A stretch of 64,000 bases of DNA from Planctomycetota bacterium (GTDB lineage Bacteria; Planctomycetota; UBA8742; SKZP01). The stretch spans positions 623-64,622 of the forward strand of contig JBFWQT010000001.1 of the NCBI GenBank assembly GCA_050249295.1, written 5' to 3'. The position numbers and the translations under genes were made by a program. How positions within the stretch are numbered: the first letter of the stretch is position 1; each line of letters opens with the position of its first letter. Below are positions 4,933 through 45,165 of this stretch, piece after piece. The notes under the pieces were generated by a model. It worked only from the letters and a program-made list of their open reading frames with translations, had not been told where the DNA came from and did no database searches.

Positions 4933-4947
4933 GCGCGCCCACCCACC

Positions 4948-5484
4948 ATGCCCGCCAGCTACCACTTCATCACCAACTGGGTGCTGGAAGGCACCACCTG
5001 CGACGACGTCTACGCGATCCTGCATGACGCCGATTCGCTGCCGCAGTGGTGGCCGAGCGTCTACCTGTCGGTGCGGCGCGACGACGACGGCAACATCCTG
5101 CTCTGGACCAAGGGCTGGCTGCCGTACACGCTGCAGTGGGCCTTCCGCGTCACCGTCGAGGACCCGCCACATCGGCTCGGCCTGTCGGCCAACGGCGACT
5201 TTGTCGGCGAGGGCATGTGGACGATCGCGGCCGACGAGGCGCACCCGGCAAACGTGAAGGTCACCTACGACTGGCGCATCGAGGCGGCCAAGCCGTTGCT
5301 GCGCCGCCTCAGCTGGCTGCTGCGCCCGGTGTTTTCGGCCAACCACCACTGGGCCATGCGCGTCGGCCTGACCAGCCTGAAGCTGGAACTGGCCCGCCGG
5401 CGCGCCACCACCGACGCGGAGCGTGCCGCGATCGCGGCCCCGCCGCCTCCGACCTTCAGGTGGCTGCTGCCGCGGCGTGGATGA
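4948..5484 (+). CDS. SRPBCC-family protein (polyketide cyclase/dehydrase, START-like)
   Basis: 178 aa; typical SRPBCC size and W-rich pattern (YHFITNWVLEG...LPQWWPSVY...TLQWAFRVTVEDPP); high GC3. Confidence 0.7.
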   Translation: MPASYHFITNWVLEGTTCDDVYAILHDADSLPQWWPSVYLSVRRDDDGNILLWTKGWLPYTLQWAFRVTVEDPPHRLGLSANGDFVGEGMWTIAADEAHPANVKVTYDWRIEAAKPLLRRLSWLLRPVFSANHHWAMRVGLTSLKLELARRRATTDAERAAIAAPPPPTFRWLLPRRG

Positions 5485-15541: not shown

Positions 15542-15582
15542 GGTGTCGGCCACTTTCTCGGGGATACAATCAGGTCTGTCGT

Positions 15583-15951
15583 TCAATGTGTGTTCGAAGC
15601 CGGGTTCTGCTTCGACCATTCCCGGTGTCGTCCTTCGGCTTCCAGTCGGCGGATCTCGGAATCGCAGGGTCTGGTTACTGACAAAGGCCGGGTTGGAATC
15701 TCGTAGATGGGCATGAGCCACGGCGCGGGCTCGGACGAGTGATCGCGCGGTGGTTTGATCATCAGTTTCGGCGGCAGACACTTGTCGGCGGGTACCAGAA
15801 CAATGGCTGCAGGCACGGCCTCTGCACGCGCCGGCTCTTTCGCCACGGGCTGATCGGCCCTGGCCGGGATCGCGTGGTTGAGGCCGATCGCAACCGCCAA
15901 CATCGCGATGGATGTCCAGACGACGTCTGACTTGCGGATCGGTGTGCTCAT
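15583..15951 (-). CDS. Small secreted protein, hypothetical
   Basis: MSTPIRKSDVVWTSIAMLAVAIGLNHAIPARA-DQ signal peptide; sits between membrane-protein gene and lipoprotein gene with 29/41 bp gaps. Confidence 0.45.
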   Translation of the reverse strand: MSTPIRKSDVVWTSIAMLAVAIGLNHAIPARADQPVAKEPARAEAVPAAIVLVPADKCLPPKLMIKPPRDHSSEPAPWLMPIYEIPTRPLSVTRPCDSEIRRLEAEGRHREWSKQNPASNTH

Positions 15952-15980
15952 GTGGTGCCTCCTTCCAACTCCACGCGGTC

Positions 15981-18794: not shown

Positions 18795-19094
18795 GGTGTC
18801 GTCCTGCAGCGGCTGGAAGGTGAGCGGACCGCCGGGCAGCGGGCGACGCGCGGAGACGCGCTCGCCGGCGAGCACCGGAACGACGCTGCGGGTCTGGTGC
18901 GCGGGCGCGGCGTGCGTCATCGGCACGGGAGCAACTGCCGCGTCAGCACTTTCGGCGGCGGCGGCGGCGGCGGCCGGCGGATTCGCACCGCTGGCAGCTT
19001 GCGGCGGGACCGGCACCAGGGCCGTGAGGCTGCGCTTGAAGGGCGACGGGCGAGAAGACGACCGGTTCATCTGCGTGCTCCTGGCGACTCGTCC

Positions 19095-19256
19095 GAGCCG
19101 CGACCGTGAGGGAGCGGGCCGGACCGAACCGACCACTCCCGAATTCATCACTGCGTTCCGAGGTCGAAGAACAAGAGCCGCGACCGTAAGGGAGCGGATG
19201 TGCAACGCGAACCACCCGGCTTACATCCGCTCCCTGACGGTCGCGGCTCTTGTTCT
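19095..19256. repeat. REP-like family A cluster: one direct copy (19095-19120) plus perfect hairpin (arms 19168-19201 / 19223-19256, 21-nt loop)
   Basis: gaacaagagccgcgaccgtaagggagcggatgt ... acatccgctccctgacggtcgcggctcttgttc; located between kinase stop (19269) and next gene. Confidence 0.85.
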
Positions 19257-21390: not shown

Positions 21391-24300
21391 ATGCGTCTTG
21401 TTGCACCGCGATTTGCCATCGCGGCCGGGCTGGCTATTGCCCTCGGCCTGACCGCACCCGCCTGTGGACGCAAGTCGTCGGCACCGCCACCTGCGCCACA
21501 AGCCGCCGCTGCGATCAGCGACCAGCCGACCAGCGGGCCGATCGAGGTGGCCGGGGACGATCCGTTCTTCGCCGCGGGCGCCGAGGTCGTCGTGATCTCG
21601 CCAGACGGCACCGTGATTCCGCCGGCCGCGACCGCACCCGGTGTGTACCAGCCAGCGGCATCGATGCAGGGCTTCGATGATGATCCGCGGTTCGTCCTCG
21701 ACGCTGGCGACGACCACAACGAGGACCCGACCAACGATCCGTACAACCAGGATCTTCGGCCGAACCCCAGTCCCGACCAGTCCAACGCCGAGTCGCCGTA
21801 CCCGAACCAGGGCTTCAACAGCTCGATCGGACTTGGCAGTAACATCGGCGGAGGCGGCGGCCCGGGCGGCGCGGGTGGCTTTGTCTACCGGCGGGCGCGT
21901 GGGGGTGGCGGCCATCGTGGCGATCAGAATGTGCTGCTCGCGCTGCGCTGGCTGGCCGACCACCAGGCGGCGGACGGCAGCTGGGATCCGATCGACTTCC
22001 CGAAGGCCGGCGCGAACCACGGCCGCACGGCCGGTGAGTACGGCAACCAGGACGGCAGCTTCGACATCGGCCTGGGACACGAACGCGTGGCCACCACCGG
22101 CCTCGCGCTGCTGGCGTTCCTCGGTGCCGGCTACACGCACACCGAAGGCGAGTTCGCCACGCCGGTGAAGCTGGCGCTGCGCTACCTCAAGGCGGTGCAG
22201 GACAACGACGGTGCGTTCGACACGACGAACCGCCACGACCCGCTGTTCGTCTACGGCCACGCGATCGGCACGATGGCGATGGCCGAGGCGTACGGCATGA
22301 CCGGCGCCAACATGCTGAAGGGCCCCGCGCAGAAGGGCGTGGACTTCATCGCCAGCTGCCAGAACCACGACGACGCGCGCGGCTACCTCGGCTGGGGCGA
22401 CGGCATCAAGGTGCTGCCATCCAACACGATCATCACCGGCTGGAATGCGCTCGCGCTGAAGTCGGCCCGCATCGCCGACCTGGATGTGCCTCAGCATTGT
22501 TGGGACGGCGCGATCACGCACCTGTCCGACGTCACCGGCAAAGTCGACGGGGACGCGAAGACCTGGAACACGAAGAAGCATGAGACCAGCGTCGCGCGCG
22601 GCGAGACCACCGACGCGATGAGCATCATGGTGCGCATGTTCGTCAGCCAGGACGCGGCTCTTCGTAACGACCCCACGATGCGCGACCTGGCGAAGCGACT
22701 GACCAGGCCCGACGTGCTGCCGGTGATCGGCGACGCGCCGACGCGCGACCTGCAGTTCCTGCTCTTCACCACGCTCGCGCTGTTCCAGATGGGCGATACC
22801 TGGTGGAAGACGTGGGAGACGCCGATCGGCGACGCGTTGATCAATACGCAGCGCATCAAGCCGGCCGACGTCCATCACCGCGCCTACGGCTCGTGGGACA
22901 GCAGCAGCACCGGCGCCGCGTTTGCCAACGGCCGCGTGTACGCCACGGCGATCAACGCGCTGACGCTCGAGACGTACTACCGCTACGAGAAGGTGGGTAC
23001 GCGCGTGCCGGCGACGCAGGATCGCGACGGCCTGCAGGACTCCGACGAAGGCGACGGCACGTGGGACAACCCGCGCACGCCGCGCGCCCCGCGCTACACC
23101 GACCGCTGGACGAAGGACGCGTACGGCCGCGATTGCTGGAACGGCCGGCCGGTCACGCAGGGCCAGATGTACTGGCGCGGCGGCACCGGCGTGCTCGGCG
23201 TCTTCCCGCTGACGCACACCGCCGTCAACGCCGCGGTCAGCGGCATGATCTCGAGCGTCGAGGTCCGCCAGAGCTACCGCAACGAGCTGACCGAGGCGAT
23301 GGAGGCGATCTACGCCTTTCCGCTGCCCGAGAACGCCGCCGTCAACGAGTTCATCCTGATCATCGGCGAGCGCAAGATCCATGGCTTCATCCGTGAGCGG
23401 CGCGAGGCGCAGCGCATCTACAACCACGCGCGCGCCAACGGCCACACCGCGGCCCTGCTGACGCAGGAGCGGCCCAGCGTGTTCACGCAGCACGTCGCGA
23501 ACATCCCGGCCGGCGGCACGCTCGACGTGTCGATCCGCTACTTCGCGCCGCTGAAGTACGACAACGGCGAGTACACGTTCGTGTTCCCGATGGTCGTCGC
23601 GCCGCGCTACACGCCGAGCAACAACCAGGGCATGGCGCCCACGCCGACCCCGGACCTGGAGCCGAACAGCGGCTACGGCACGAGCTACCCGACCAGCGCC
23701 GTGCCCGACGCCGATCACGTCACGCCGCCGACGATGTGGGCCGGCACTCGCAGTGGTCGCGACATCGCGATCCGGCTGACGATCGATGCGGGCGTGCCGA
23801 TCGAGAAGATCGAGTCGGTCAACCACGCCATCATGGCGCAGCGCGTCAGCCCGAAGGAGATGCGCATCCAGCTGCACCCGGCCGACACGCTGCCGAACAA
23901 GGACTTCGTGCTGCGCTATCGCGTGGCGGGTGCTCTGCCGGCGTACGGCATGGTCGCTCACCACAACGAGAAGCAGGGCGGGTTCTTCGCCCTGATGGTC
24001 CAGCCGCCGCACACGCCCACGCCCGAGCAGATCGTGCCGCGCGAGCTGGTGTTCGTGGTCGACAACAGCGGCTCGATGAATGGCAAGCCGATGGACCAGT
24101 GCCAGGCGCTGATGTGGAAGGCCCTCGGCGGCCTGCGCAAGGGCGACACGTTCAACATCATCACGTTCGCCGGCTCGTCGCAGACGCTGTTCCGCGAATC
24201 GGTCGAGCCGACGGACATGAACGTGCAGCTTGCGTGGAACTACGTCAGCCGGCTCACCGGCGCGGGTGGCACCGAGTTCCTGTCGTCGCTGCGCCAGCTC

Positions 24301-25302
24301 TCCACGATGCCGCGCGACCGTGGCCGGATGCGGGTGGTCACGTTCCTCACCGACGGCCTCGTCAACAACGATGACGCGATCATCGACAGCGTGCAGGCCG
24401 CGCAGCGCTGCGACGCACGCACGCGTTACTTCGCCGTCGGCGTCGGCAGTTCGCCCAACCGCGCGCTGATCGAGCGCATCGCGAGCAATGGCCTCGGCCG
24501 CTCGCTGTTCATCGGCGTCAACGAGTCAGCCAATGCGCCGGCCGAGACGTTCTTCCGCTACATTGACGCGCCGGTGCTGTGGGACTTCTCGCTCGACTGG
24601 GGCAACCTGCAGGTCGAGCAACTCTACCCGAGCCAGCTCGGCGACCTCTGGGCCGGCCAGCCGCTGATCCTCTACGGCCGCTACACCACGGCGGGCATCG
24701 GCGAGCTCACGATCAAGGCGCGTCGCGGCTACGGCGAGATGGTCGAGATCAAGGTGCCCGTCTCGCTGCCCGGCGGCAACGTCGGCAACCCGGCGCTGGC
24801 GTCGGTCTGGGCGCGGCACCGCATCGAGGAACTGAGCGACGCGTGCCTCAGCTGTTCGCAGTATGACCGCTCGACAATGCAGGGAGAGATCAAGCAGATC
24901 GCGCTCGACTTCCATCTGCTCAGCAAGTTCACGGCATTCGTCGCGGTGGACTACTCGGCCCGCGTCAGCAACGGCAACCCGGTGACCGTGCAGCAGCCGC
25001 AGGAGCACGCGGACGGCATGACCAACACCGGCGATGTTGCGCCCGCGGCCGTGATGGCCGGTCCGCGCCTGGCCGCCTGGGGCGTCGAGCTGATGGTCCT
25101 GCCCGACGGCACCGTCTGGATCGACCGAGTGATCCCCGGTTCGGACGCGGCGCTGGCCGGTCTGCGGGCGGGCGTGCGCGTGCTCGGTTGCGACGGTGTG
25201 CGCATCGCATCGGCCGACGACCTGCGCCGCGTCGTGGGTGACGGCGTGATGGTCGAGACGGCCGACGGCGGCACCGTGGACCGCTACTACCTTCCGCGAT
25301 GA
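21391..25302 (+). CDS. Giant lipoprotein: prenyltransferase/squalene-cyclase-like repeats + VIT domain + vWA domain + C-terminal PDZ
   Basis: Lipobox LTAPACG; LALRWLADHQAADGSWD repeats; VIT block AIYAFPLPENAAVNEFILIIGERKIHGFIRER; vWA MIDAS LVFVVDNSGSMNG; PDZ-like VWIDRVIPGSDAALAGLRAGVRVL. Confidence 0.85.
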   Translation: MRLVAPRFAIAAGLAIALGLTAPACGRKSSAPPPAPQAAAAISDQPTSGPIEVAGDDPFFAAGAEVVVISPDGTVIPPAATAPGVYQPAASMQGFDDDPRFVLDAGDDHNEDPTNDPYNQDLRPNPSPDQSNAESPYPNQGFNSSIGLGSNIGGGGGPGGAGGFVYRRARGGGGHRGDQNVLLALRWLADHQAADGSWDPIDFPKAGANHGRTAGEYGNQDGSFDIGLGHERVATTGLALLAFLGAGYTHTEGEFATPVKLALRYLKAVQDNDGAFDTTNRHDPLFVYGHAIGTMAMAEAYGMTGANMLKGPAQKGVDFIASCQNHDDARGYLGWGDGIKVLPSNTIITGWNALALKSARIADLDVPQHCWDGAITHLSDVTGKVDGDAKTWNTKKHETSVARGETTDAMSIMVRMFVSQDAALRNDPTMRDLAKRLTRPDVLPVIGDAPTRDLQFLLFTTLALFQMGDTWWKTWETPIGDALINTQRIKPADVHHRAYGSWDSSSTGAAFANGRVYATAINALTLETYYRYEKVGTRVPATQDRDGLQDSDEGDGTWDNPRTPRAPRYTDRWTKDAYGRDCWNGRPVTQGQMYWRGGTGVLGVFPLTHTAVNAAVSGMISSVEVRQSYRNELTEAMEAIYAFPLPENAAVNEFILIIGERKIHGFIRERREAQRIYNHARANGHTAALLTQERPSVFTQHVANIPAGGTLDVSIRYFAPLKYDNGEYTFVFPMVVAPRYTPSNNQGMAPTPTPDLEPNSGYGTSYPTSAVPDADHVTPPTMWAGTRSGRDIAIRLTIDAGVPIEKIESVNHAIMAQRVSPKEMRIQLHPADTLPNKDFVLRYRVAGALPAYGMVAHHNEKQGGFFALMVQPPHTPTPEQIVPRELVFVVDNSGSMNGKPMDQCQALMWKALGGLRKGDTFNIITFAGSSQTLFRESVEPTDMNVQLAWNYVSRLTGAGGTEFLSSLRQLSTMPRDRGRMRVVTFLTDGLVNNDDAIIDSVQAAQRCDARTRYFAVGVGSSPNRALIERIASNGLGRSLFIGVNESANAPAETFFRYIDAPVLWDFSLDWGNLQVEQLYPSQLGDLWAGQPLILYGRYTTAGIGELTIKARRGYGEMVEIKVPVSLPGGNVGNPALASVWARHRIEELSDACLSCSQYDRSTMQGEIKQIALDFHLLSKFTAFVAVDYSARVSNGNPVTVQQPQEHADGMTNTGDVAPAAVMAGPRLAAWGVELMVLPDGTVWIDRVIPGSDAALAGLRAGVRVLGCDGVRIASADDLRRVVGDGVMVETADGGTVDRYYLPR

Positions 25303-35539: not shown

Positions 35540-35715
35540 CGGTGGGCCGGCTCCGCTCCGCTGGTGCGACAAGGCGACCCATTATGCCGCGCGCCGGTCG
35601 GTGCGAACAGGCTCGCGCGAGTCGGCGGCCGCTCGCCAGGCGCACACTCCCGATCCGGGCGCGTCGCACGTATACTCATGAGCCCCGCGCAACGTCTTAC
35701 CGCTCGTGCAACCGC

Positions 35716-38700
35716 ATGGCCGACCGGCTCACAGTTGAATGCCCGGATTGCTTCCGGCGCTGGATGATCGACCGCGAATCGGGCGGCACCGAAGCGGCCT
35801 GCCCGCGGTGCGGCCAGTGGCTCGCGCTGCCCAACCGCAGCGGAAAGGGCGAACGCCGCACCCGACGGCCGGGCACCACGCGGCACGTCAACGAAGCCAT
35901 GGCGGCCAAGCGTTCGGGTACCGGCAAGTTGCCGGACAAGGTTGCGCCGGCCGGACGCGTGCCGCGCCGCGAAGCGCCGCCACGCCCGAATCGCGCGGCC
36001 GTGTCGGACGTCGAACTTGCGCCGTTCCAGATGCCCGGCGTGAAGACGCCGGAGAGCGGGACGCCAGCTACCAGCGAGGCGCCGGTGCCGGATGCGAAGC
36101 CGGTGCTCGTCTCCGATGTGCAGTTGCCGGCGTTCAGGTTGCCTGGCGAGCGGACCGTGCCGCGCGAAGAAGACCTGCCCGTCAGCAAGGCGGCGACACC
36201 GGCCGCCGAGCCTGCGACGGTGCAGACCGCGGTGAGCATTCCGCCGCGCGTGCGCCGCATGCTCGGCGAATGGAAGGACGGCCGCCTGTCGGTCGAGGAG
36301 TTGCTGGCGGCCGCCGACGATCCCGACGTACGTGCGCTGGTGCAGGCCGAGATCGACGAGTTCGTCGAGGATGTAGACCGGCGCACGATCGCGCTGGGCA
36401 CCCCGCCGACCCGGCTGCGCGACGCCGCGGAGCTGGCCGTGGCGGAGACGGCCGTGGCCGCTGCCGGACCGGCCACGACCGACACCAATGAGGAGGTGGT
36501 GACGAGCGCGGCGAGCACGCCGACTACCACCGACGACGACGACGACGTGTTCGACACGCCCGAACAGAATGAGCCGGTCGGGGCGACCGATAGCGAGCCA
36601 GCCTCCGCCAGCAGCACAGGGCCGATCGTCTCGCCAACCGGCCGCCGCACCTGGGTGGCCGCGCAGTTGCCCGATGTCGAGGTTCGCGCCGACGACGGAG
36701 TGTGGGACGAGTCGGTCGACAGCGTCGACGTGTCCAACGTTGCGGCCCTCGACGCCGACGCGGCGTTCGCCGATGCGCAGGACGCGCTGCCGGCCGACGA
36801 CGGCGACATTGTGGATGCCACGCCGACGACGTCGCCCAGCGCGTCCGACATCCGCACCTTCGCCGAGGTGCAACAGGAGGAGAGCGAGGCCGCCAGCGCC
36901 GCCGCGTTTGCCGCCGCCGGCGACAACGTCGCCGAGTCGCTGCCCGCCGACGTGCTCGACGCCGACGTCGCCGAGGCCTCCGACATCACGGGGGCCGACC
37001 TTGCGGCCGCGGCCGACCCGACGCAGCCGTTCGAGTCCCTGACCTTCAGCGCCGGCCTCGAGCCCGAGCAGGAGAACGAGAGCTCGATCTGGCAGACCGC
37101 TGGCGCCGGCTTCGACATCGAGTTGCCGGCCGACCTCGACTGGAATCCGCTGGCCGGTGGCGGCACGCCGTCGAGCCTGGCGATCCGCGCGACCAGTTCG
37201 ATCGACGTGTTCGAGGGCATGGACGACGCGCGCTTCGCCCGCGACCTCGTCGCGCAGATGGCCGTCGAGGGCACGTTCGACCCGTTCCTCGGCGACTTCG
37301 TCGGCGGCCCCGGGTTCGAGGGAGCCGCGCCCGATATGTTCAGCGGTGCCACCGCTGCCGCGTCGGGCGACGACGTGTTCGGCAGCGGCGCCGATGTGCC
37401 GGTGCCGTCGGCGATCGACATTGCGCCACGCCGGACGGAACGGTCTGACCGCGCGGGCTCCGCCGGCTGGAGCCAGCCCGGCCCGACCGAGACGCGCCAG
37501 CTGACCGCGCCGGCCGCCATGATGCGCCGCAGTTCGCGCCGCGCGAAACTGCGCCTCGCCACCCAACCCGAAAGCCTGGCCGGCATCTCGCTCGGCGTGC
37601 AGGCCGACCTCGAGCCGCCGCCCGAATTGCGCTTCGACGTCCCGATGGTCACCGCGCCCGAAGTCGAGCCGCTGCCCGGCAGCACGATTGAAATCGGCGG
37701 CGCGCCGTACACCGTGATGGCCGCCGACGACGCGATCCAGCGCCTGCTCCGCACCGGCGACCTGCCGGAGGGCACGTACGTTCACCAGCTTGACCTCGGC
37801 TACTACCCCGACTCGTGGGAACGCCCGTCGGTCTGGTACCTGCGGCCGTACCTGCACAGCCGGATGGTCACGCGCGAAGAAGACTTCCATATTCCGCGCC
37901 AGGGCCCGACGTCGTCCGACTGCCTGCCCGTCGACTGGCCGCAGCGGCCGATCCGCATCCACCGCTGCTGCTTCGGCACGCTCAACCTCTCGCGCGCGCA
38001 CTTCCCGGCCGGCTTCACGATGACCGAGTCGCGCGTGCTGACCCGCGTCGCCGCCGTGCGCGTGCGCTTCGACGGCTGGGTCGATTTCGCGCGCAGCGTG
38101 ATGCCGGCGATCTGCGCGTTCTTCCAGGCGCGCGCGACCGGCAGCGTGACGTTCCGTCGTTGCGTGTTCCTCGGCGTGGCGTGGTTTGCCGAGCTGCGCT
38201 TCGACGGCTTCACGTCGTTCCGAGAGGCCGACTTCCACGGCGACCTCGACCTCGGCGGTTCGCGCTTCGGCGAAGACCTCGACCTGCGCGGCGCGGTCAT
38301 CGGCGGGCACGTCGATCTCAGCCGCATCAGCACCGACGGCGGCCTCGACCTCACCGACGCCGGCCTGCATGGTGACCTCAACCTGCAGCTCGCGCGCATC
38401 GGTGGCGCGTCGCGGCTCGACAACCTGATCTGTGCCGGCGAGGCGCAGTTCAACCGCTCGCGCTTCAGCGGCGACGCGTCGTTCGCGCACGTGCGCATCA
38501 GCGGCCCGGCGCTGTTCGAGCATGCGCACTTCGGCGCCGACGCCCGCATCCGCCGGTGTCGCTTCGGCAGCACCGCCGACTTCTATGCGCTGGAAGTCGA
38601 CGGCGCGTTCGACCTCACCGACACCGTCTTCCACGCCGATGTGGTGCTCGCGACCAGCCGCTTCCACGGCATGGTGCGCCTCAACGTCGACGCCGTGTCG

Positions 38701-40245
38701 CGCAACCGCAGCGAGAGCGCGCCGCACCCGGCCGAGTTCCGCGGCAACCTGCGCGCCGACCACGCCGTGTTCCGCCGGCCGGTGCTCGCCAGTGGCGTGC
38801 AGTTCCACGGCAAGACGTCATTCCGCCGGGCCACGTTCGAGGAGTCGAGCACGTTTGCCGACGCCGCGTTCCGCACCGGGTTCGATCTGGCCGGGTCGTT
38901 CCACAGCAAGGAGCTCGACCTGCGCGGGACCACGATCGGCGGCCGGCTGAACCTCGACGGCGCGCACATCGGTGGCCGCGCATTGCTGCCCGGCGCGCAC
39001 TTCCGCGCTATCTCGCTCAGCGACGCCACGGTCGGCGTGCTGATGCTCGACCGCGAGCAGCTCTACCCCGACCGCCAGGACCTCGCTGAAAACCGCCTCG
39101 ACCCCGAGGTCCCGCCGTTCCGCCCGCGCGAGCGCGCGTTGCCGGTCAAGCTCTACAACTTCCGTCACGCCGTGGTCGGGCCCGACCCGGCCAAGCCCGG
39201 CGCGCGCGCGCAGAACCTCACGCCTGCCCGTCGCCGCGAAGTGCGCAAGGCGCGGCTGGCCGGCGGCATGGATGCCGAGTTGCGGCTCGAGGAGGGCGGG
39301 GCCCGGCTGGTCGCGTTCGAGCGCGCGCGCCAGGAGTTCCTGCTGATCGAGAAGTCGCTGCGCGAACTCGGCCGGCGCGAGCAGGCCGACTGGTCGTGGG
39401 TGCAGGCCAACCGGATGGGCCGCGCGGTGCGCGTGCTGGCCGGCCGCGGCGTGCGCCCGGTCGACGAGACGCTGCTCGGCGTGGAGCGCGAGATCGCCCG
39501 CCTCGACGAGATGCGCCGGCTGATCGAGAGCGACGACACCGGGCACGAACGCTTCCCGAAGGAGCTGCGCAAGCGGCGCGAGTCGATGATCGCCAGCGAG
39601 GCCTCGGCCTCGATGAGTGACGCGAGCAGCGATGCGAACACCAGCGGCGAGCTGGCCGAGAGCTGGGGCCGCCTGAAAGACACCGTGCTCAAGGCGATTG
39701 CCTCGCGTATCGGCCCGCTGCAGGAGCGCCGCCGCCGTACGCTCGACCGGCTGCGTCCGCTCGAGCGCGAGCGTTCGCGCAACCCGTGGCGCGCGCTGAC
39801 CGGCAGCATCGGCTGGCGCGCCCGCACCTTTGCCGACGCCGTGCAGGACGCCACCTCGGCGTACGGCACCAGTCCGTGGCGCGTGGCCGGCATTGCGCTG
39901 CTGGTGGTGGTGCTGTTCGCCGCGTTCTACACGCGCCAGTCGTACGTCGAGGAGGCGACGCTGCCGCACCAGCCGGCCATGCGTGCCGCCGAGCGGGCCA
40001 TCGTGTACGACGCCGAGCCCGGTCGACTGACCACCGTGGACGCGGTCGGCGAGGAGTCGGTGCCGGTCCGCTTCTCGCGCTACACACTGTTCTCGTTGCG
40101 CGCGATCAGCGGTCAGGCGCTGAGCGGCGATGGTCGCCCGCACGGCCACCATCCGGTGGTCATCGCCGTGCTGCTCGAGATGTTGCTCGGGCTATTGCTG
40201 CTGGTGATGTTCATCACGGCGAGCGTGCGGCGCGTGTTGCGATAG
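35716..40245 (+). CDS. Giant pentapeptide-repeat protein with N-terminal zinc ribbon, acidic low-complexity region and C-terminal 2-TM anchor
   Basis: ATG 35716: MADRLTVECPDCFRRW...CPRCGQW (CxxC..CxxC); about 300 aa of pentapeptide repeats (ADFHGDLDLGGSRFGEDLDLRGAVIGGHVDLSR...); C-term WRVAGIALLVVVLFAAFY and VVIAVLLEMLLGLLLLVMFI. Confidence 0.8.
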   Translation: MADRLTVECPDCFRRWMIDRESGGTEAACPRCGQWLALPNRSGKGERRTRRPGTTRHVNEAMAAKRSGTGKLPDKVAPAGRVPRREAPPRPNRAAVSDVELAPFQMPGVKTPESGTPATSEAPVPDAKPVLVSDVQLPAFRLPGERTVPREEDLPVSKAATPAAEPATVQTAVSIPPRVRRMLGEWKDGRLSVEELLAAADDPDVRALVQAEIDEFVEDVDRRTIALGTPPTRLRDAAELAVAETAVAAAGPATTDTNEEVVTSAASTPTTTDDDDDVFDTPEQNEPVGATDSEPASASSTGPIVSPTGRRTWVAAQLPDVEVRADDGVWDESVDSVDVSNVAALDADAAFADAQDALPADDGDIVDATPTTSPSASDIRTFAEVQQEESEAASAAAFAAAGDNVAESLPADVLDADVAEASDITGADLAAAADPTQPFESLTFSAGLEPEQENESSIWQTAGAGFDIELPADLDWNPLAGGGTPSSLAIRATSSIDVFEGMDDARFARDLVAQMAVEGTFDPFLGDFVGGPGFEGAAPDMFSGATAAASGDDVFGSGADVPVPSAIDIAPRRTERSDRAGSAGWSQPGPTETRQLTAPAAMMRRSSRRAKLRLATQPESLAGISLGVQADLEPPPELRFDVPMVTAPEVEPLPGSTIEIGGAPYTVMAADDAIQRLLRTGDLPEGTYVHQLDLGYYPDSWERPSVWYLRPYLHSRMVTREEDFHIPRQGPTSSDCLPVDWPQRPIRIHRCCFGTLNLSRAHFPAGFTMTESRVLTRVAAVRVRFDGWVDFARSVMPAICAFFQARATGSVTFRRCVFLGVAWFAELRFDGFTSFREADFHGDLDLGGSRFGEDLDLRGAVIGGHVDLSRISTDGGLDLTDAGLHGDLNLQLARIGGASRLDNLICAGEAQFNRSRFSGDASFAHVRISGPALFEHAHFGADARIRRCRFGSTADFYALEVDGAFDLTDTVFHADVVLATSRFHGMVRLNVDAVSRNRSESAPHPAEFRGNLRADHAVFRRPVLASGVQFHGKTSFRRATFEESSTFADAAFRTGFDLAGSFHSKELDLRGTTIGGRLNLDGAHIGGRALLPGAHFRAISLSDATVGVLMLDREQLYPDRQDLAENRLDPEVPPFRPRERALPVKLYNFRHAVVGPDPAKPGARAQNLTPARRREVRKARLAGGMDAELRLEEGGARLVAFERARQEFLLIEKSLRELGRREQADWSWVQANRMGRAVRVLAGRGVRPVDETLLGVEREIARLDEMRRLIESDDTGHERFPKELRKRRESMIASEASASMSDASSDANTSGELAESWGRLKDTVLKAIASRIGPLQERRRRTLDRLRPLERERSRNPWRALTGSIGWRARTFADAVQDATSAYGTSPWRVAGIALLVVVLFAAFYTRQSYVEEATLPHQPAMRAAERAIVYDAEPGRLTTVDAVGEESVPVRFSRYTLFSLRAISGQALSGDGRPHGHHPVVIAVLLEMLLGLLLLVMFITASVRRVLR

Positions 40246-40371
40246 ACCGCGGGGATTCGCCCCTCCGGGCCCACTGGCTGCCCATGGCTGCCGGGTGGTA
40301 GCGTCTCGCCCGGCGGATTGATCGCTCACGTCCGACAGGCGCCACATTCCAGCGTGGCGCGCGGAGGCCAG

Positions 40372-41604
40372 ATGGTGCGTTGTCTTGCGCTCATGCTCGC
40401 GGTGCTTTGCGTTGCCCTGTGGTTGCCCCTCGCTCCGGCCCACCACGCCGCGGCGCAGGATCCCGACGAGCCGGAGGCAGGGCCTGCCGATCCCGGCGAC
40501 GACGAGCCGGAGACGCCCGCCGCACCCGCGCACGCCGTGATCATCCACATCGACGGCGGCCGCGTGATGGCCGGTTTCGCTGGCGACAAGGCGCCGAAGG
40601 TGGAGTTCCCCGCGGTGGTCGGCCGTCCGCGCGAAGGCGGGGAGCCGCAGTTCGGTGACGCCGCGTTGTCCGACGATCTGCAGCAGAGCTGGCCGGTCGA
40701 ACTCGGGCGGATCGTCAACGTCGCTGACTATTCACTCCTGATCGGGCACGCGCTGGACGGGCTGCACGCCACCGGTGCCGGGCAAGCGCTTTTGTTGACC
40801 GTCGCGTCGCACACGCCGTTCGATCAGCTCGAACAGGTCGCGAAGTCGATGTTCGAGACGCACCAGGTGGGTTCGCTGTTCTTCACGCGCGACGCGGTCA
40901 CGGCGCTCTACGCGTCGGGTCGCACCACGGGTCTTGTCGTGGTCGGTTCGTACGACCACACCGGCGCGACCGCCATCTACGACGGCCACACCATCCAGAC
41001 CGACATGCTCGAGGTCGGCGAGCGGCAACAGGTCGAGTACCTGGCATTCCTCCTCAAGAAGCGCGGCATCCCGCTCGACAGCAATCTGCGCCTGAGCCGC
41101 AACCCCGCGACCGACATCTACCGCAAGCTGGCGTTCGTCGCGGACGACTTCGACGCAGCCGAGGCGATGGCGGCCGAAGGTAGCCACTTCGATCAGACCT
41201 GCGCGCTGCCCGGCGGCCAGCAGATCACCGTGGGCGCCGAGCGCTACCATTGCGCCGAGACGCTGTTCCGGCCGACCATGCTCGGCCGGGTCCTCGAGGG
41301 CATCCACTTCCTGGCATACGGCCGGGCCATGCGTTGCGATGCGGACCTGCGGCCCACGCTGTACGCGAACGTGGTGCTGGCCGGCAACGTGGTCACCGGT
41401 ACCGCCGAACGACTGACCCGCGAACTGACCGTGCTGGTGCCGCAGGCGATGCCCGTCAAGGTCGCCGTTCTGCCGCATGCACAGTACGGCGTGTTCGAGG
41501 GTGCGTCGCTGCTCGCGGGGATCGACACGTACCGGCAGATGTGGATCAGCCGGGCCGACTACGACGCGTCGGGCCCGGCGATCGTGAAGCAGAAGTGCCA
41601 GTAG
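40372..41604 (+). CDS. Eukaryote-type actin homolog with N-terminal Sec-like signal peptide
   Basis: GGAGG 6 nt upstream of ATG 40372; [30 protein letters not shown] then actin fold: [29 protein letters not shown] (cf. [31 protein letters not shown]), LYASGRTTG identical to actin, [46 protein letters not shown]. Confidence 0.85.
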   Translation: [410 protein letters not shown]

Positions 41605-41812
41605 CGGCGGAGCAGACTGCGCCGGGAGATCAGGCCGCACTGCGGCCCGGGCTGCGGGCTGCCACGATCGCGGCCAACACTCAAGCGACGCGCGATTCGG
41701 ACCGACACACTGAAGTGGCGCGGAGGGTCCATCCCGATCCTCCGCTGCACGCTCACCGATATCGCAGCCGCCGACGCGACGCCCGACGCAGACGACAGAG
41801 GAGCATCCCGAC

Positions 41813-44179
41813 ATGCCATTCGCGAACGACAGTGCGCATCGCAATCGCACCCGCCACGCGACCGCGTCCGCCGGCACGTCCAGTGACGATGCCGACGCGC
41901 TGATCCCGACGTGGGTGTGGGACCGCGCGCGCTCCGTCTGGCAGGCCATCGCCCGCGATGTGGCCGGGCTCGGGCTGCTTGCCGCGGCCGTTGTCACCGG
42001 GCTCTCGCTTGTCACTTTCCACCCGGCCGACGTCAGCGCACTGGTCGTCATCGGCGACGCCGCTACGAGCACGCAGAACCTGCTTGGCAGCGTCGGCGCC
42101 TGGCTCGGCTCACAACTGTTGTACTGGTTCGGTCTCGGCGCGTTCGTGCTGCCAGCCCTGCTGATGGCTGCCGGCGCGGTGTGCCTGCTGGTTCCGCCGA
42201 CGCTCGACGCGGTGCGCGTGCGCCGGCCGGGCGTGCGGGCGGCCGCCTGCCTCGGCCTGGTGCTCGCGTTCGCCGCCGTGCTCGGCGACGCCAATCCGCC
42301 GGTGCCCGGTGCACCCGTCGCCGGCGGCACGCTCGGCATGGCGCTGCTGCATCTTGGCGGCATCTTCGGTGGAGTCGGTGTCGCGCGCGTGGTGTTCAGC
42401 CTGCTGCTGGTCGGGTGCCTGTATGTCGCGGCCGGCGATCTGCCGGCACGTCTGGCGTTGCTCGCACCGGCGCGCGACGACGAGGACGCGGACGGAGACG
42501 GCGACGCGACAGCCTTTGATGACGCCGACGAAACCCTGGAGTGCGACGTGCCGGCCGACGACAACGCGCCGCTGTTCGCGCCCGCGCCCGCGCCGCCCGC
42601 CGTCGAGAAGCCGTCGATCCTGCGGCAGATGACGCGCATGCTGCTGCGCAAGCCGACGGACACCGTGCCCCCGCAGATGCTGGTCACCGAGGCTGACCTG
42701 CTCGCACCTGCACCGCCGCTGCGCAAGCCCACCGGCAAGACGCCCGCTGCGAAGTCGACGCCCGCGCCAACCCCGGCGCCAGCCGCTGCACCGGCCGATA
42801 TGCGCTACATGATTCCACCTCCCGAGTTGCTCACTGCCGCGCCGGCGATCGACGCCAACCTGCTCGATTCGCAGGCGCACGAGACCGCGCGCCGACTGCA
42901 GGACGCGCTGCAGCAGTTCAAGCTCGAGGCGCGCGTCATCGGCATCGACCGCGGCCCGACCGTCACGCTCTACGAACTCGAGCTGCCGCCCGGCACGAAG
43001 GTGCGCAAGCTGTCGTCGCTCGAACACGACCTCGGCATGGCACTGCGCGTCGAGTCGGTGCGCGTGGTCGCGCCGATCCCCGGCCGCGGCGGCATCGGCG
43101 TGGAGATCCCCAACCAGGACAGCGAGCCGGTGATGCTGCGCGAGTTGCTTCACAACGGCGAGGCGCAGCGCATGGCGCGCGAGCAGGTGCTGCCGTTCGT
43201 GATCGGCCGCGACAGCGTGGGCCGCCCGGTGATGGCCGACCTCGCCGACATGCCGCACCTGCTGATCGCCGGCACCACTGGCTCGGGCAAGAGCTGCGCC
43301 GCGAATGCGCTGGTGCTCAGCCTGATCTTCACGCGCCACCACGAGGACGTGCGCCTCGTGATCATCGACCCGAAGATGGTCGAGTTCGCGGCGTACCGCG
43401 ACATCCCGCATCTGCTGCTGCCGATCGTCACCGACAATCGCGAAGCGGCCGGTGTGCTCAACTACCTGGTCGAGGAGATGGAGCGCCGCTACCGGATCCT
43501 CGAGCGCACGCTGTGCAAGCACATCAAGGAGTTCAACGACCTCTCACCGGCCGAGCGCGCCAACCGCGGCACCGGCAAGGTGAACGCCACCGCCACGCCG
43601 GAGGAGCCACTGCCCGAACGCTTGCCGTACATCGTGGCGATGGTCGACGAACTGGCCGACCTGATGATGGTGGCGGGCAAGGAGGTCGAGGGGCACATCT
43701 GTCGCCTCGCGCAGAAGAGCCGCGCCGTCGGCATTCACCTCGTGCTGGCGACGCAGCGGCCGAGCGTGGACGTGATCACCGGGCTGATCAAGGCCAACAT
43801 CCCGTCGCGCATCTCGTTCCGCGTGCTCAGCGGCATCGACTCGAAGACGATTCTGGACCGGCCCGGCGCCGAGCGCCTGCTGGGACGCGGCGACGCGCTG
43901 TTCCTCCCGGCGGGCCGACTCGACCTGGTGCGCTGCCAGGGCGCGTTCGTCACCAATTCCGACATCCTGCGTGTCACGCGCTTCGTGAAGGCGCAGGCCC
44001 GCGCGAACTATATCCAGCTGCCGGTGGAGCGTACGGACGACGACATGGATGATGATGACGACGACGATCAGGTGACCCGGCCGCGCCGTCGTCGCAAGCG
44101 CGGCGGCCGCAATGCGGGTCGCGTGTCGTTGCGTTCGGGCCGTGGTCAGGTGGTGGATGACTTCATCGACGCCGCGTAG
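41813..44179 (+). CDS. ftsK: DNA translocase FtsK/SpoIIIE
   Basis: GAGGAG upstream; N-terminal TM helices, Pro/Ala linker, motor domain IAGTTGSGKS, VIIDPKMVEF, gamma-like C-term; acidic DDDMDDDDDDD tail. Confidence 0.9.
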   Translation: MPFANDSAHRNRTRHATASAGTSSDDADALIPTWVWDRARSVWQAIARDVAGLGLLAAAVVTGLSLVTFHPADVSALVVIGDAATSTQNLLGSVGAWLGSQLLYWFGLGAFVLPALLMAAGAVCLLVPPTLDAVRVRRPGVRAAACLGLVLAFAAVLGDANPPVPGAPVAGGTLGMALLHLGGIFGGVGVARVVFSLLLVGCLYVAAGDLPARLALLAPARDDEDADGDGDATAFDDADETLECDVPADDNAPLFAPAPAPPAVEKPSILRQMTRMLLRKPTDTVPPQMLVTEADLLAPAPPLRKPTGKTPAAKSTPAPTPAPAAAPADMRYMIPPPELLTAAPAIDANLLDSQAHETARRLQDALQQFKLEARVIGIDRGPTVTLYELELPPGTKVRKLSSLEHDLGMALRVESVRVVAPIPGRGGIGVEIPNQDSEPVMLRELLHNGEAQRMAREQVLPFVIGRDSVGRPVMADLADMPHLLIAGTTGSGKSCAANALVLSLIFTRHHEDVRLVIIDPKMVEFAAYRDIPHLLLPIVTDNREAAGVLNYLVEEMERRYRILERTLCKHIKEFNDLSPAERANRGTGKVNATATPEEPLPERLPYIVAMVDELADLMMVAGKEVEGHICRLAQKSRAVGIHLVLATQRPSVDVITGLIKANIPSRISFRVLSGIDSKTILDRPGAERLLGRGDALFLPAGRLDLVRCQGAFVTNSDILRVTRFVKAQARANYIQLPVERTDDDMDDDDDDDQVTRPRRRRKRGGRNAGRVSLRSGRGQVVDDFIDAA

Positions 44180-44238
44180 CCGGATTGCGGGGATGCAATG
44201 CCGACCCGCGGCACGTGATCGCATCGCGAGCCTTCGAC

Positions 44239-44266
44239 GATTTCCCCGCTCCCTGTCGGTCGCGGC
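44239..44266 (-). repeat. REP-like family A copy (minus orientation)
   Basis: ccccgctccctgtcggtcgcggctctt in convergent gap between ftsK and recO. Confidence 0.7.
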
Positions 44267-44268
44267 TC

Positions 44269-45075
44269 TTACCGCACATCGACCGGTTCCGGCCGCAGCG
44301 CCGCGCCGAGCGGCAGGTAGCGGAAACTGATTGGCGAGCGATCGAGCACCTCGACCACCATCCCCTGCAGCAATGCGGCCAGCGGCTGCAGGATCACATC
44401 CGGCAGACTCACCTGCGTCAGCGGTTTGCGTACACCGCCGAGCAGCCGGCGCAGCACCTCCACGGCCACTCCCGGCATCACTACACGACCGCCCGGCATC
44501 AACGGCGGCGCATGCGGCGCACCGTAGCCACGACCGCCGCGCACGCTGAACACCACCTCGTCGAACTCGCCGAGCCGGCGACCGCTGACCGCGCAGCCCG
44601 ACGTGTCCGGCGCACGGCCGATCGCCGCGAGGTAGCGCGCGAGAAAATCGACGATCACGAGCCGCCAGTCGGCCTCGCTGCACAGCTCCACCAGCCCGCG
44701 CGCCGCCGCATAGTAGAGCGGCTGCTCCGGGTGGTCGGGCTGCGAGGCCGCCAGCGTCAGCTCCTGGATCGCCACGGCCGCGTGCCAGTGCGCCAGGTCG
44801 CGACGCACCTCGGCAAAGCTGTGGATCACCTCGCACTCGCTGACGAGGTGCAGCGCATCGCCACGCTTCGGGTACCAGCAGATGCGGTTGAGCGTCAGCG
44901 TGTCGAACGGGCTGTCGATGCGGCGACTGCGATGCGGCGTGAGCCAGACCGCGCGCGAGCCCCGCGCCAGGCAACTCAGCCGGCCGTGCTCCGGCGTGAG
45001 GAACGCCACCACCTGGCTGGTATCGGAGAACTCCGTGCGTCGCAGCACCAGTGCATCCGACTTGAGGATCGCCAT
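44269..45075 (-). CDS. recO: DNA repair protein RecO
   Basis: ATG at 45075: MAILKSDALVLRRTEFSDTSQVVAFLTPEHGRLSCLARGSRA... typical RecO N-terminal OB-fold; Arg-rich upstream extension in ORF track rejected. Confidence 0.85.
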   Translation of the reverse strand: MAILKSDALVLRRTEFSDTSQVVAFLTPEHGRLSCLARGSRAVWLTPHRSRRIDSPFDTLTLNRICWYPKRGDALHLVSECEVIHSFAEVRRDLAHWHAAVAIQELTLAASQPDHPEQPLYYAAARGLVELCSEADWRLVIVDFLARYLAAIGRAPDTSGCAVSGRRLGEFDEVVFSVRGGRGYGAPHAPPLMPGGRVVMPGVAVEVLRRLLGGVRKPLTQVSLPDVILQPLAALLQGMVVEVLDRSPISFRYLPLGAALRPEPVDVR

Positions 45076-45165
45076 CGCCTGCGCCCGGTTGCGGTCGCGC
45101 TGCCCCACTCTACCTCCTGGCGCGCGGATCAACACGCGGCCGCGCGCATGAGGTAGTCTGGTGCC

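Follow-up and report, generated by a model that had tools for sequence, protein, structure and literature searches.

A eukaryote-type actin with a predicted signal peptide and a degenerate nucleotide site on a bacterial contig of the Planctomycetota

Our results indicate that a bacterial contig of the Planctomycetota encodes a eukaryote-type actin whose N-terminus bears the hallmarks of export and whose nucleotide site has been largely replaced. The gene is located in a window of 64 kb, i.e., the whole stretch of DNA analyzed here, where a single open reading frame (ORF) at 40372..41604 of the forward strand reads from ATG to TAG and encodes a 410-aa product matching the actin family PF00022. 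Actin is the classic example of a cytoplasmic polymer driven by ATP, and we know of no extracytoplasmic actin in any organism. The explanation that we favor, with some reservation, is that the product constitutes an exported, nucleotide-independent actin-fold protein (a "pseudo-actin") of eukaryote-type descent, whose gene has been resident long enough to acquire the codon usage of its host.

Having eukaryotic actins as its closest database relatives and a MAG as its source, the gene might be taken for a eukaryotic contaminant or an assembly chimera, a reading that we regard as hardly tenable. The gene lacks introns, and its neighbors on the same contig, 126 nt upstream and 208 nt downstream, are bacterial, within a context that includes FtsK, a sigma-54 activator, RsmB, sigma-70, a hybrid histidine kinase, ComM, ScpB, MCP and tRNA-Glu. 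The GC content at its three codon positions (0.72/0.48/0.87) is similar to that of the neighbors, and its RSCU correlation of 0.94 falls within the span of the other genes (0.90-0.99); the native composition that the sequence-only reading had proposed to verify was thus borne out. Furthermore, two independent Logan assemblies matched positions 37660-43626 and 40326-43670 at 100% identity, crossing both gene junctions; the gene recurs otherwise only in a second MAG, where it is likewise 100% identical and both junctions are repeated. These observations support that the gene is native to this high-GC contig and not a contaminant. An intact 410-codon ORF with host-like codon usage points, in turn, to a long residence without disruption. 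No sigma-70-type promoter was found for the gene, and the only terminator-like match (n=1) sits inside it, at chance level. A search for profilin and gelsolin genes, originally proposed for the genome, was carried out on the 64-kb window and returned neither, nor cofilin.

The peptides on which the sequence-only reading had relied were all found in the ORF, including those of the N-terminus and of the actin-like C-terminus, and its claim of a eukaryote-type actin distinct from the bacterial homologs was upheld. The features that sustain this assignment are the following:

40534..41601, + strand: actin-fold domain, residues 55-410 (PF00022, AF2 and Foldseek)
40906..40932, + strand: LYASGRTTG, the same nine residues as actin 142-150, contributing to the hinge and to the barbed-end hydrophobic cleft
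41536..41604, + strand: actin-like C-terminus of 22 residues followed by TAG, with no C-terminal sorting domain

The match to PF00022 is full-length, with 201.2 bits (cut-off 27; E 2.8e-59), and no Pfam or NCBIfam family of MreB, ParM, FtsA or MamK was detected at E<=0.1. The best PDB matches are all eukaryotic actins (E 1e-73 to 1e-69, residues 54-409); identity to these proteins is about 37-38%, reaching 38-41% (~250 bits) for the best eukaryotic actins. Stretches conserved with conventional actin include AGFAGDxAP...FPxxVGRPR, ITVGxER and the C-terminal QMWIS...GPxIVxxKC. An AF2 model displayed an overall pLDDT of 87.6, mostly above 90 in the actin domain, and a pTM of 0.82, and its best Foldseek matches were G-actin structures (target-normalized TM 0.94-0.95, rmsd 1.5 A), with the four subdomains of the actin fold predicted in the model; as it was built on an actin MSA, this fold prediction is not independent of homology. 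Altogether, these sequence comparisons support a eukaryote-type actin rather than a member of the MreB, ParM or FtsA families. Conventional actins share very high identity, typically above 80%, and the 38-41% of our protein sets it outside their orthologs. No close relative was found among 1.84 billion cluster representatives, the best being at most 41% identical.

The phylogeny suggested by the sequence-only reading was built by neighbor joining (NJ) with Asgard actins and the ARP-like sequences ArpT2 and ACTL7A, and it separated the Asgard clade from our protein with 100% bootstrap support. Asgard actins were also weaker matches than conventional actins (31-33% identity, ~170 bits), and ArpT2 and ACTL7A, with 30% identity, were likewise more distant. 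Our protein forms a very long branch whose sister is another divergent bacterial actin in 196 of the 200 bootstrap replicates; no single exported actin emerged from the bootstrap as its closest relative, and the grouping of exported actins in this tree may reflect long-branch attraction.

Upstream of the actin domain, the ORF encodes 54 additional residues, with these features:

40363..40367, + strand: GGAGG resembling a Shine-Dalgarno motif, upstream of the ATG with a spacing of 4 nt, read directly
40372..40455, + strand: predicted Sec signal peptide, residues 1-28, with n-region MVR, an h-region of 18 residues and c-region PAHHAAA
40423..40425, + strand: TTG start chosen by NCBI, inside the hydrophobic segment, giving the 393-aa form MGE3850118.1 (form P0001, beginning MPLAPAHH)
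40456..40533, + strand: acidic Pro-rich linker, residues 29-54, predicted to be disordered (AF2 pLDDT 49-64)

The GGAGG, which the sequence-only reading had also placed ahead of this ATG, is the strongest Shine-Dalgarno-like motif preceding any first-candidate start in the window, where several other genes display weaker GGAG or GAGG motifs. The N-terminus of the 410-aa form displays the sequence features of a Sec/SPase I signal, with MVR, 18 hydrophobic residues and A-A-A|Q, and signal peptidase I is predicted to cut after A28 (AAA|QD). It also passes a crude heuristic test (positive n-region, uncharged hydrophobic h-region of 10-20 residues and small residues at -3/-1; not a trained predictor) that is passed by 0.8% of the six-frame open start positions, and that the TTG form fails. 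Neither a lipobox ([LVI][ASTVI][GAS]C; C13 is preceded by A-V-L) nor a twin-arginine motif (no RR) is present at the N-terminus. These hallmarks support a Sec/SPase I signal peptide, as the sequence-only reading had recognized, and the Sec or Tat signals borne by further bacterial actins, described below, lend strong backing to it. Cleavage after A28 would leave a mature protein of 382 aa with a net charge of -19, of which the linker contributes -9; in four other bacterial actins (P0350, P0353, P0091 and P0145) the signal peptide is likewise followed by an acidic stretch.

A cytoplasmic location would be obtained if translation began downstream, at TTG 40423 or GTG 40534, or if an uncleaved anchor tethered a cytoplasmic actin domain to the membrane; the protein would then be a cytoskeletal or membrane-associated actin relative comparable to the known bacterial actins BARP and ActM. 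The NCBI start lies indeed at 40423, GTG 40534 would place the N-terminus in register with that of actin, the GC3 of the signal peptide and linker region is slightly below that of the actin domain (0.80 vs 0.89), and degenerate actins devoid of a signal (L001 and L014) exist. Against this, no Shine-Dalgarno-like motif precedes 40423 or 40534, the only strong one being that of ATG 40372, where codon periodicity also begins. Moreover, T occupies codon position 2 in 10 of the 18 h-region codons, compared with a background of 15%, a hydrophobic run expected by chance with P~1e-4; the charges flanking the h-region (+1 on the N side, -9 on the C side), from which an N-in/C-out orientation follows, predict together with AAA|QD a translocated and cleaved product rather than a cytoplasmic domain. 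Clear Sec or Tat signals are also present in at least 8 further actin lineages, and at the low-GC loci of other actins the ORFs extend upstream beyond the ATG of the signal peptide by only 6-14 codons. An independent gene caller applied in the Logan assemblies picks the 410-aa form as well. TTG 40423 is therefore probably too far downstream, and we consider a cytoplasmic protein unlikely and export of the actin likely, judging from these sequence features. The start selected by the NCBI pipeline removes most of the h-region and, with the signal peptide thus masked and the product labeled "hypothetical protein", routine annotation would miss this case.

The sequence-only reading had aligned the phosphate-1 loop with that of actin and envisaged an ATP-dependent polymerizing protein. 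Neither proposal withstood a comparison of the functional positions, which revealed the following replacements:

40546..40569, + strand: degenerate phosphate-1 loop, HIDGGRVM where actin 11-18 reads DNGSGMCK, with D11 to H, S14 to G and K18 to M
40627..40650, + strand: D-loop deletion site PREGG^EPQ, ten residues missing, corresponding to actin 41-50
40942..40965, + strand: degenerate phosphate-2 loop, VGSYDHTG where actin 154-161 reads DSGDGVTH
41113..41130, + strand: DIYRKL in place of DIKEKL, the adenosine/ribose contacts K213 and E214 being replaced by Y and R
41377..41400, + strand: LAGNVVTG in place of LSGGTTMYPG, with a two-residue deletion and loss of G302, T303 and Y306 (adenine pocket)

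In the phosphate-1 region the alignment is ungapped (MAFFT, with hmmalign in agreement), and the pattern D-x-G-[ST]-G-x-x-K, kept by all eukaryotic, Asgard and ARP actins compared, is absent from our protein. The phosphate-2 pattern D-x-G-D-G-x-x-H, likewise invariant in the eukaryotic, Asgard and ARP sequences of the alignment, is also absent in an ungapped alignment, with D154, G156, D157, G158 and H161 all replaced. The position of Q137 is occupied by K (MAFFT) or D (hmmalign), and K213, E214, G302, T303, Y306 and K336 of the adenosine pocket correspond to Y, R, N, a deletion, V and Q, respectively. Overall, 2/19 or 2/23 site residues are kept, depending on the tally, as compared with 37% identity for the protein as a whole, and the residues replacing ATP and cation contacts often have bulkier side chains (H, Y, R, M, V). 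Within the D-loop (residues 40-50), 1/11 positions matched. As the phosphate-1 hairpin is of unchanged length and has preserved two glycines, some backbone contacts to phosphate may persist; even so, loss of nucleotide binding appears very likely from the residues replaced.

A functional ATP-dependent polymerizing actin, located in the periplasm or anchored to the membrane, would be compatible with the full-length homology to actin and with the signal peptide. However, the nucleotide and cation site is essentially erased, no D-loop is left and ATP is absent from the periplasm, which makes this reading very improbable. Most likely, as far as residue comparisons indicate, the protein is neither ATP-dependent nor capable of canonical F-actin contacts, and it is probably non-polymerizing. 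Conversely, the subdomain-1 core is retained, and 8 of the 11 barbed-end cleft residues are kept (Y143, A144, G146, T148, G168, L346, T351 and M355); since LYASGRTTG is also the inter-domain hinge, this retention may be structural rather than functional.

An export signal together with a degenerate ATP site was found in at least 8 other bacterial actin lineages. This set comprises P0091 (Crocinitomix), P0163 (on a 7-Mb Myxococcota-type MAG contig), P0350 and P0353 (Myxococcota), P0145, L074, three tandem actins with signal peptides in L139, and P0199, which carries a Tat signal (T-R-R-D-V-I-K); its members keep 3-10 of the 19 site residues. Actins without a signal (L005-L011 and L013, from Myxococcota, Nannocystis, Polyangiaceae and Sedimenticolaceae) keep 15-17/19, most have a D-loop, and they share a ten-residue variant. 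The signal-less L001 and L014 are degenerate too, hence the ATP site is not lost in exported actins alone. Counted by lineage, the 2x2 table ([[8,0],[4,7]]) gave a Fisher p~0.007, computed by hand and uncorrected for phylogeny. The claim that the configuration was previously undescribed stands in part: no periplasmic, secreted, exported or pseudo-actin is described in the searchable literature, which did not reach the original report on BARP, yet at least 8 other lineages share the architecture. The comparison of synteny that the sequence-only reading had proposed yielded neither conserved gene order nor a partner gene among the exported-actin loci or between these and the window.

The relationship with the Myxococcota proteins bears on whether the gene is a decaying relic of horizontal transfer, in which losses at the ATP site and D-loop would be neutral and the signal-like N-terminus fortuitous. 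A singleton lineage, a very long branch and the lost catalytic residues would agree with decay. Nevertheless, P0350 and P0353, only 55% identical to each other, display a similar phosphate-1 motif and share motifs of 16 and 11 residues with our protein, the 11-mer, located at the C-terminus, being identical in P0350; these common regions indicate that the altered phosphate-1 loop is conserved instead of resulting from random decay. In addition, the ORF is intact with host-like codon usage, the fold is predicted at high confidence with its structural core retained, conservation is non-random (cleft 8/11 vs nucleotide site 2/23), and the architecture recurs in many lineages. We thus hold a relic to be improbable, and maintain the exported pseudo-actin as the preferred reading. 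Regarding residues shared among the exported actins, V180/G181 was the sole enriched candidate; Y279, I297, L313 and A141 were rejected as shared-derived positions, being common in non-metazoan or other bacterial actins and not diagnostic.

Eukaryote-type actins have been reported in bacteria before. BARP, an actin-related protein of Haliangium ochraceum, was attributed to horizontal transfer (Wu et al., 2009, via PMC3035250); it resembles our protein as a PF00022/COG5277 eukaryote-type actin in a bacterial genome, and Myxococcota also provide several relatives of ours. BARP is filed as a cytoskeleton protein, with no export signal mentioned, in the literature within our search, outside which its original report lay, whereas ours combines a Sec-type signal with the loss of the D-loop and with an ATP site that is dead as judged from its residues. 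ActM of Microcystis aeruginosa PCC 7806 was presented as a horizontally acquired eukaryote-type actin with properties unlike those of eukaryotic actin, intracellular, co-localized with a linked, co-transferred profilin and forming a shell-like structure (PMC3254629); our window has no profilin and the product is predicted to be exported. Our protein shares with BARP and ActM a eukaryote-type actin in a bacterial genome, but not the cytoplasmic location, as far as predicted. The actin-like protein of 'Ca. Uab amorphum' groups with eukaryotic actins, ARPs, BARP, ActM and Asgard actins, and its authors suggest an Asgard-like source and a possible component of intracellular fibers (PMC6906331). 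It belongs to the Planctomycetota too; ours is instead closer to conventional than to Asgard actin and carries a signal peptide. A 2025 review on Planctomycetota mentions no actin.

Compared with conventional actin, our protein has the same fold (TM 0.94-0.95), LYASGRTTG and the barbed-end cleft, and differs in its ~38% identity, the replaced phosphate-1, phosphate-2 and adenine-pocket residues, the missing D-loop and the 54 added residues of signal and linker. The signal-less L005-L011 and L013 are PF00022 members in bacterial contigs as well, but lack a signal and keep the sites. With MreB, ParM, FtsA and MamK only the actin/ASKHA superfamily fold is common. Syringactin (NF040575) shares this fold and gave 69.8 bits, below its cut-off of 300 and restricted to the last ~90 residues, with the other exported actins also below the cut-off; the term was not found in the searchable literature.

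In the explanation that we favor, translation would start at ATG 40372, the Sec system would export the chain and signal peptidase I would cut after A28, releasing a 382-aa mature protein with a flexible acidic Pro-rich tail. This chain would fold without nucleotide into a G-actin-shaped module which, lacking D-loop-mediated longitudinal filament contacts, would work outside the cytoplasm as a binding module and not as an ATP-driven polymer. As the leading, though tentative, role, the protein may act as an actin mimic or decoy that offers its barbed-end cleft to the actin-binding proteins or filament pointed ends of the eukaryotes that the bacterium would meet as grazers, prey or hosts. Second in likelihood comes a scaffold of the envelope or surface that has a bacterial partner. 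A Sec signal alone reaches the periplasm only, no route into a eukaryotic cell being evident, and without a shared partner gene or a profilin, gelsolin or cofilin in the window the proposed ligand is speculative. It is conceivable, although doubtful at present, that exported pseudo-actins form an unrecognized class in several phyla (Planctomycetota, Myxococcota, Bacteroidota and others), having arisen repeatedly or once and then spread.

If this were the case, pseudo-actins could trap eukaryotic actin-binding proteins or cap the actin filaments of grazers, prey and hosts, being candidate tools against eukaryotic cytoskeletons; alternatively, they could form ATP-independent periplasmic or surface assemblies, and the three-gene tandem array of L139 would fit a hetero-oligomer. 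The case would also show that the actin fold can be stable without nucleotide, presumably without the eukaryotic CCT chaperonin, and be reused as an exported binding module, and would reveal a neglected class of eukaryote-derived proteins, carried by bacteria whose lifestyle is often predatory or eukaryote-associated.

True actins proved much less rare in bacteria than the sequence-only reading had stated, as 13 bacterial MAG loci were obtained from one pattern scan. Intact eukaryote-type actins are scattered across MAGs of Myxococcota, Cyanobacteria, Bacteroidota and Gammaproteobacteria, which broadens what is known of the exchange of cytoskeletal genes between bacteria and eukaryotes and is relevant to debates on eukaryogenesis that use such genes as markers. 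A scan of genome contigs with peptides of our protein gave no match, and when the exported-actin alignment A1 served as a profile query, canonical actins dominated the output, which was uninformative on the group, because the consensus of long branches lies close to canonical actin. The metagenome pattern scan recovered mostly eukaryotic actin transcripts and exons along with one new exported actin, L074, and the viral scan a single giant-virus contig.

The open reading frame at 40372-41604 of the forward strand, with its ATG start and TAG stop, and all peptides quoted in the sequence-only reading were confirmed in the window sequence; both its sequence and its predicted fold place the 410-aa product in the actin family. 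Pfam Actin (PF00022) matched it at 201 bits (cut-off 27) and no family of the MreB, ParM or FtsA type appeared at E<=0.1, so the eukaryote-type assignment made earlier holds. The top matches in a PDB sequence search were all eukaryotic actins (E 1.2e-73 to about 1e-68, over residues 54-409), and an AlphaFold2 prediction based on an actin MSA (mean pLDDT 87.6, pTM 0.82; residues 55-410 confident, residues 1-50 low) superimposed on G-actin crystal structures with a target-normalised TM of 0.94-0.95 and an rmsd of 1.5 A.

Besides the window protein itself, phmmer run exhaustively over 1.84 billion cluster representatives returned nothing above ~41% identity, the closest proteins being eukaryotic actins (38-41%), with Asgard actins at 31-33%. 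Such proximity to eukaryotic actins would suit contamination, but this is the less likely explanation; contamination or chimerism is indeed very unlikely, because codon usage is native-like, the neighbours are bacterial and other assemblies match over both gene junctions. GC is 66-72% along the whole 64-kb window, the actin gene has 0.72/0.48/0.87 GC at codon positions 1/2/3, and its codon usage (RSCU) correlates at 0.94 with that of the pooled neighbours (0.90-0.99 for other window genes). The full gene was found in two Logan assemblies, 100% identical to the window across 37660-43626 and 40326-43670, and partial copies in a second Planctomycetota MAG. The actin can thus be regarded as native to a high-GC bacterial contig, as previously proposed.

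Bacterial genes accompanying the actin gene in the window
35542-40245, forward strand: pentapeptide-repeat protein, 1567 aa, directly upstream, ending 126 nt before the actin start
41813-44179: FtsK, directly downstream
Other genes: sigma-54 activator, RsmB, sigma-70 factor, hybrid histidine kinase, ComM, ScpB, MCP, Na+/H+ exchanger, tRNA-Glu

The N-terminus of the upstream protein resembles a zinc ribbon (CxxC...CxxC) and its C-terminal region is hydrophobic; it also contains a long stretch of acidic low complexity and pentapeptide repeats (Pentapeptide_3, 105 bits). No evidence was found in the window for its co-transcription with the actin gene, around which neither a sigma-70-type promoter nor a convincing terminator was detected.

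In the NCBI entry for the same protein (MGE3850118.1, 'MAG: hypothetical protein AB7K09_00100 [Planctomycetota bacterium]'), translation starts at TTG 40423 (393 aa), inside the hydrophobic segment, most of which is cut off; this annotation reveals neither that the product is an actin nor that it has a predicted signal peptide. ATG 40372 is the better start on four grounds. The GGAGG located 4 nt before it is the strongest Shine-Dalgarno-like motif ahead of any first-candidate start in the window, where several other genes have weaker GGAG/GAGG motifs, and nothing comparable precedes 40423 or GTG 40534; codon-position GC is flat upstream of 40372 (0.73-0.74) and periodic from there on (GC2 0.55, GC3 0.80); 10/18 codons of the h-region have T at position 2, for which the background is 15% (P~1e-4); and an independent gene caller also returned the 410-aa form. 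From this start, the N-terminus comprises an n-region MVR, an uncharged h-region of 18 residues and A-A-A↓Q-D, with neither lipobox nor twin arginine, and the charges flanking the h-region (+1 and -9) predict an N-in/C-out orientation. Our signal-peptide call comes from a crude heuristic Sec-SP test and not from a trained predictor: among open start positions in all six frames, 27/3352 (0.8%) passed, including several real secreted-protein starts and ATG 40372, and the NCBI start failed. On these grounds the Sec-type signal peptide proposed earlier is upheld as a prediction, and from it we infer export and cleavage; a cytoplasmic or membrane-anchored protein made from a different start is less likely.

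The sequence-only reading had also described an ATP-dependent polymerising actin, which our comparison does not sustain. The window protein was aligned with eukaryotic actins, Asgard actins and one ARP (where the human beta-actin reference shares 81-87% identity with the database actins), using nucleotide-site and target-binding-cleft residues as reported from structural studies of actin (Kabsch et al. 1990; Dominguez 2004).

Canonical actin residues and their counterparts in the window protein
P1 (phosphate loop 1), actin 11-18: DNGSGMCK; window HIDGGRVM, equal length, ungapped
P2 (phosphate loop 2), actin 154-161: DSGDGVTH; window VGSYDHTG
Actin Q137: Q; window K or D, depending on the aligner
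Actin K213, E214: K, E; window Y, R
Actin loop 300-308: SGGTTMYPG; window AG--NVVTG
Actin R335, K336: R, K; window A, Q
D-loop, actin 41-50: present; window, ten residues deleted

Nucleotide/cation-site residues are kept at 2/19 positions (2/23 in a wider list), against 37% overall identity, and elsewhere 8/11 residues are kept in the barbed-end hydrophobic cleft, 11/14 in the hinge helix and 15/21 in the 19-39 hairpin. Many of the substitutions introduce larger residues (H, Y, R, M, V), which would suit a cleft occupied by side chains in place of a nucleotide. The protein thus lacks the defining functional features of working actins, namely P1, P2, the adenine pocket and the D-loop, and, given the loss of the site residues and D-loop, it is very unlikely to form an ATP-dependent polymer; a true ATP-dependent periplasmic actin is the less likely interpretation for the same reason.

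Several other database actins carry an N-terminal export signal, then an acidic stretch and degenerate P1/P2 loops (P-numbers denote proteins, L-numbers loci).

Other actins with a predicted export signal
P0091: Crocinitomix MAG, 72-kb contig, NCBI label 'actin, cytoplasmic 2'; signal MKKSFQILLVFCFCFFAATLNA, followed by QEEED
P0163: 'uncultured delta proteobacterium' MAG, 7.0-Mb contig; Sec signal
P0350 / P0169: Myxococcales / 'Deltaproteobacteria' MAGs, 1.04-Mb contig; Sec signal
P0353: 55% identical to P0350; Sec signal
P0145: short contig; Sec signal
L074: metagenome contig, partial gene; Sec signal
P0207 and two paralogues (L139): bacterial contig, tandem array; Sec signals in 3/3
P0199 (L138): bacterial contig, flanked by two signal-less actins; Tat-type signal T-R-R-D-V-I-K

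The P1-region motif is similar among the window protein, P0350 and P0353, and the C-terminal 11-mer is identical in P0350 and the window protein. A P1-region motif common to diverged exported actins indicates that the altered P1 is conserved and not randomly decayed, which makes a neutral relic less likely. Neither the window protein nor these relatives reached the NCBIfam 'syringactin' cut-off.

No partner protein emerges from gene context, and tblastn between loci of different organisms and against the window found nothing in common. In Crocinitomix, the gene directly downstream of P0091 (L002:3387-5198, reverse strand) specifies another secreted surface protein, assigned to DUF7619 and bearing a C-terminal T9SS sorting domain; around P0350, in a Myxococcota MAG, lie genes for an M23 peptidase, a Cys-rich protein of 192 aa and a HYR/beta-helix protein of 2720 aa; and the neighbours of P0163 are uncharacterised proteins. 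The Cys-rich gene (L135:11258-11836, GCA_020632715.1) follows P0350 in the same orientation after a gap of 49 nt, and it has no Pfam match and no counterpart in the window or the Crocinitomix locus. The L139 array (1700-5445; ENA ERZ28613056 scaffold_13784, 9.7 kb, GC 37%) holds three tandem actins of 399, 414 and 413 aa, all with Sec-type signal peptides and degenerate P2 loops, 55-65% identical to one another and set among bacterial genes (GNAT, MarR-type regulator, APH, MFS); the trio could form a hetero-oligomeric exported system. In L138 (612-4179; GCA_024449935.1, JAANSS014420305.1, 6 kb, GC 42%), also with three tandem actins, P0199 is the middle one, its flanking actins have partly degenerate P2 loops, and a LexA/S24-type repressor gene adjoins.

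A scan of the GTDB genome collection for an actin peptide variant yielded 14 loci, 13 of them actins in bacterial MAGs; most of these lack a signal peptide, have canonical loops, retain 15-17/19 site residues and stem from 'delta' MAGs, among them Myxococcales, Nannocystis, Nannocystaceae and Polyangiaceae. Signal-less actins at L005-L011 and L013, on contigs that include 'delta proteobacterium' contigs of 2-3.8 Mb and a Sedimenticolaceae chromosome, keep 15-17/19 in seven full-length genes, and the partial Sedimenticolaceae locus keeps 10/11 visible positions. Some are 70-80% identical to eukaryotic actin, through either recent transfer or contamination. P0004 ('actin [Streptomyces sp. NPDC092307]', labelled as an isolate; 375 aa, 52.7-kb contig), which shares 83% identity with human beta-actin, results either from contamination or from a very recent transfer. 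Bacterial MAGs hold far more eukaryote-type actins whose ATP-site motifs are intact than the two classical cases, BARP and ActM.

At the lineage level, all eight exported lineages keep at most 10/19 site residues and 7/11 signal-less lineages at least 15/19 (Fisher p about 0.007, by hand and ignoring phylogeny); L001 (Leptolyngbyaceae) and L014 (Aureispira) are signal-less yet degenerate. In a NJ tree, the bacterial actins that are exported or degenerate grouped on the side of the eukaryotic actins, with Asgard actins apart (100% support), a grouping for which long-branch attraction is a real caveat. In 196/200 bootstrap replicates the sister of the window protein was one of these actins, although which one varied. 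Among candidate shared-derived residues, V180/G181 alone were group-enriched (G181 in 9/9 versus 12% elsewhere).

The best-supported reading is that of a putatively exported, nucleotide-independent, actin-fold and probably non-polymerising protein derived from a eukaryote-type actin. It would first be exported by Sec and then cleaved by SPase I at A28↓Q29, leaving a mature form of 382 aa with a net charge of -19 and an acidic Pro-rich tail. The barbed-end cleft is the docking site of most G-actin ligands and of the neighbouring subunit's D-loop. Since this cleft is kept while the protein's own D-loop and nucleotide site are lost, and since many of the lineages concerned are predators or associates of eukaryotes and the branches are long, we prefer the role of a mimic or decoy of actin, directed at eukaryotic actin-binding proteins or at filament pointed ends, to that of an envelope scaffold which has a bacterial partner; this is tentative, and in itself less likely than not. 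Its main weaknesses are that cleft retention may be purely structural and that a Sec signal by itself takes no protein into a eukaryotic cell.

BARP of Haliangium (PMC3035250), ActM of Microcystis (PMC3254629) and the actin-like protein of the planctomycete 'Ca. Uab amorphum' (PMC6906331) are discussed as intracellular, whereas the window protein carries a predicted export signal. ActM is accompanied by profilin; in contrast, no profilin, gelsolin or cofilin gene lies within the 64-kb window. In the searchable literature, of incomplete coverage and with the primary BARP paper outside it, neither an actin bearing an export signal nor an exported pseudo-actin (one with a degenerate ATP site) was found to be described. 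All of the evidence comes from MAGs, the lineage is a singleton and any function is speculative; an exported actin would surprise cytoskeleton specialists, and recurrence across phyla makes this a testable class and not a one-off.

Elsewhere in the window, the ~1 kb between FtsK and the sigma-54 activator (44180-45165) has no confidently called gene, holding two overlapping opposite-strand ORFs with no Pfam match and ambiguous codon-position GC. A 772-aa Dynamin_N GTPase-domain protein (bacterial dynamin-like; 11608-13926, reverse strand) is adjoined by two large ORFs without Pfam match (13937-16333 and 15981-19205, both reverse). At 21391-25302 (forward), a 1303-aa protein with a signal-peptide-like N-terminus combines VIT and VWA domains in an inter-alpha-trypsin-inhibitor-like architecture, among the 'eukaryote-like' gene types noted earlier in Planctomycetes (PMC6906331).
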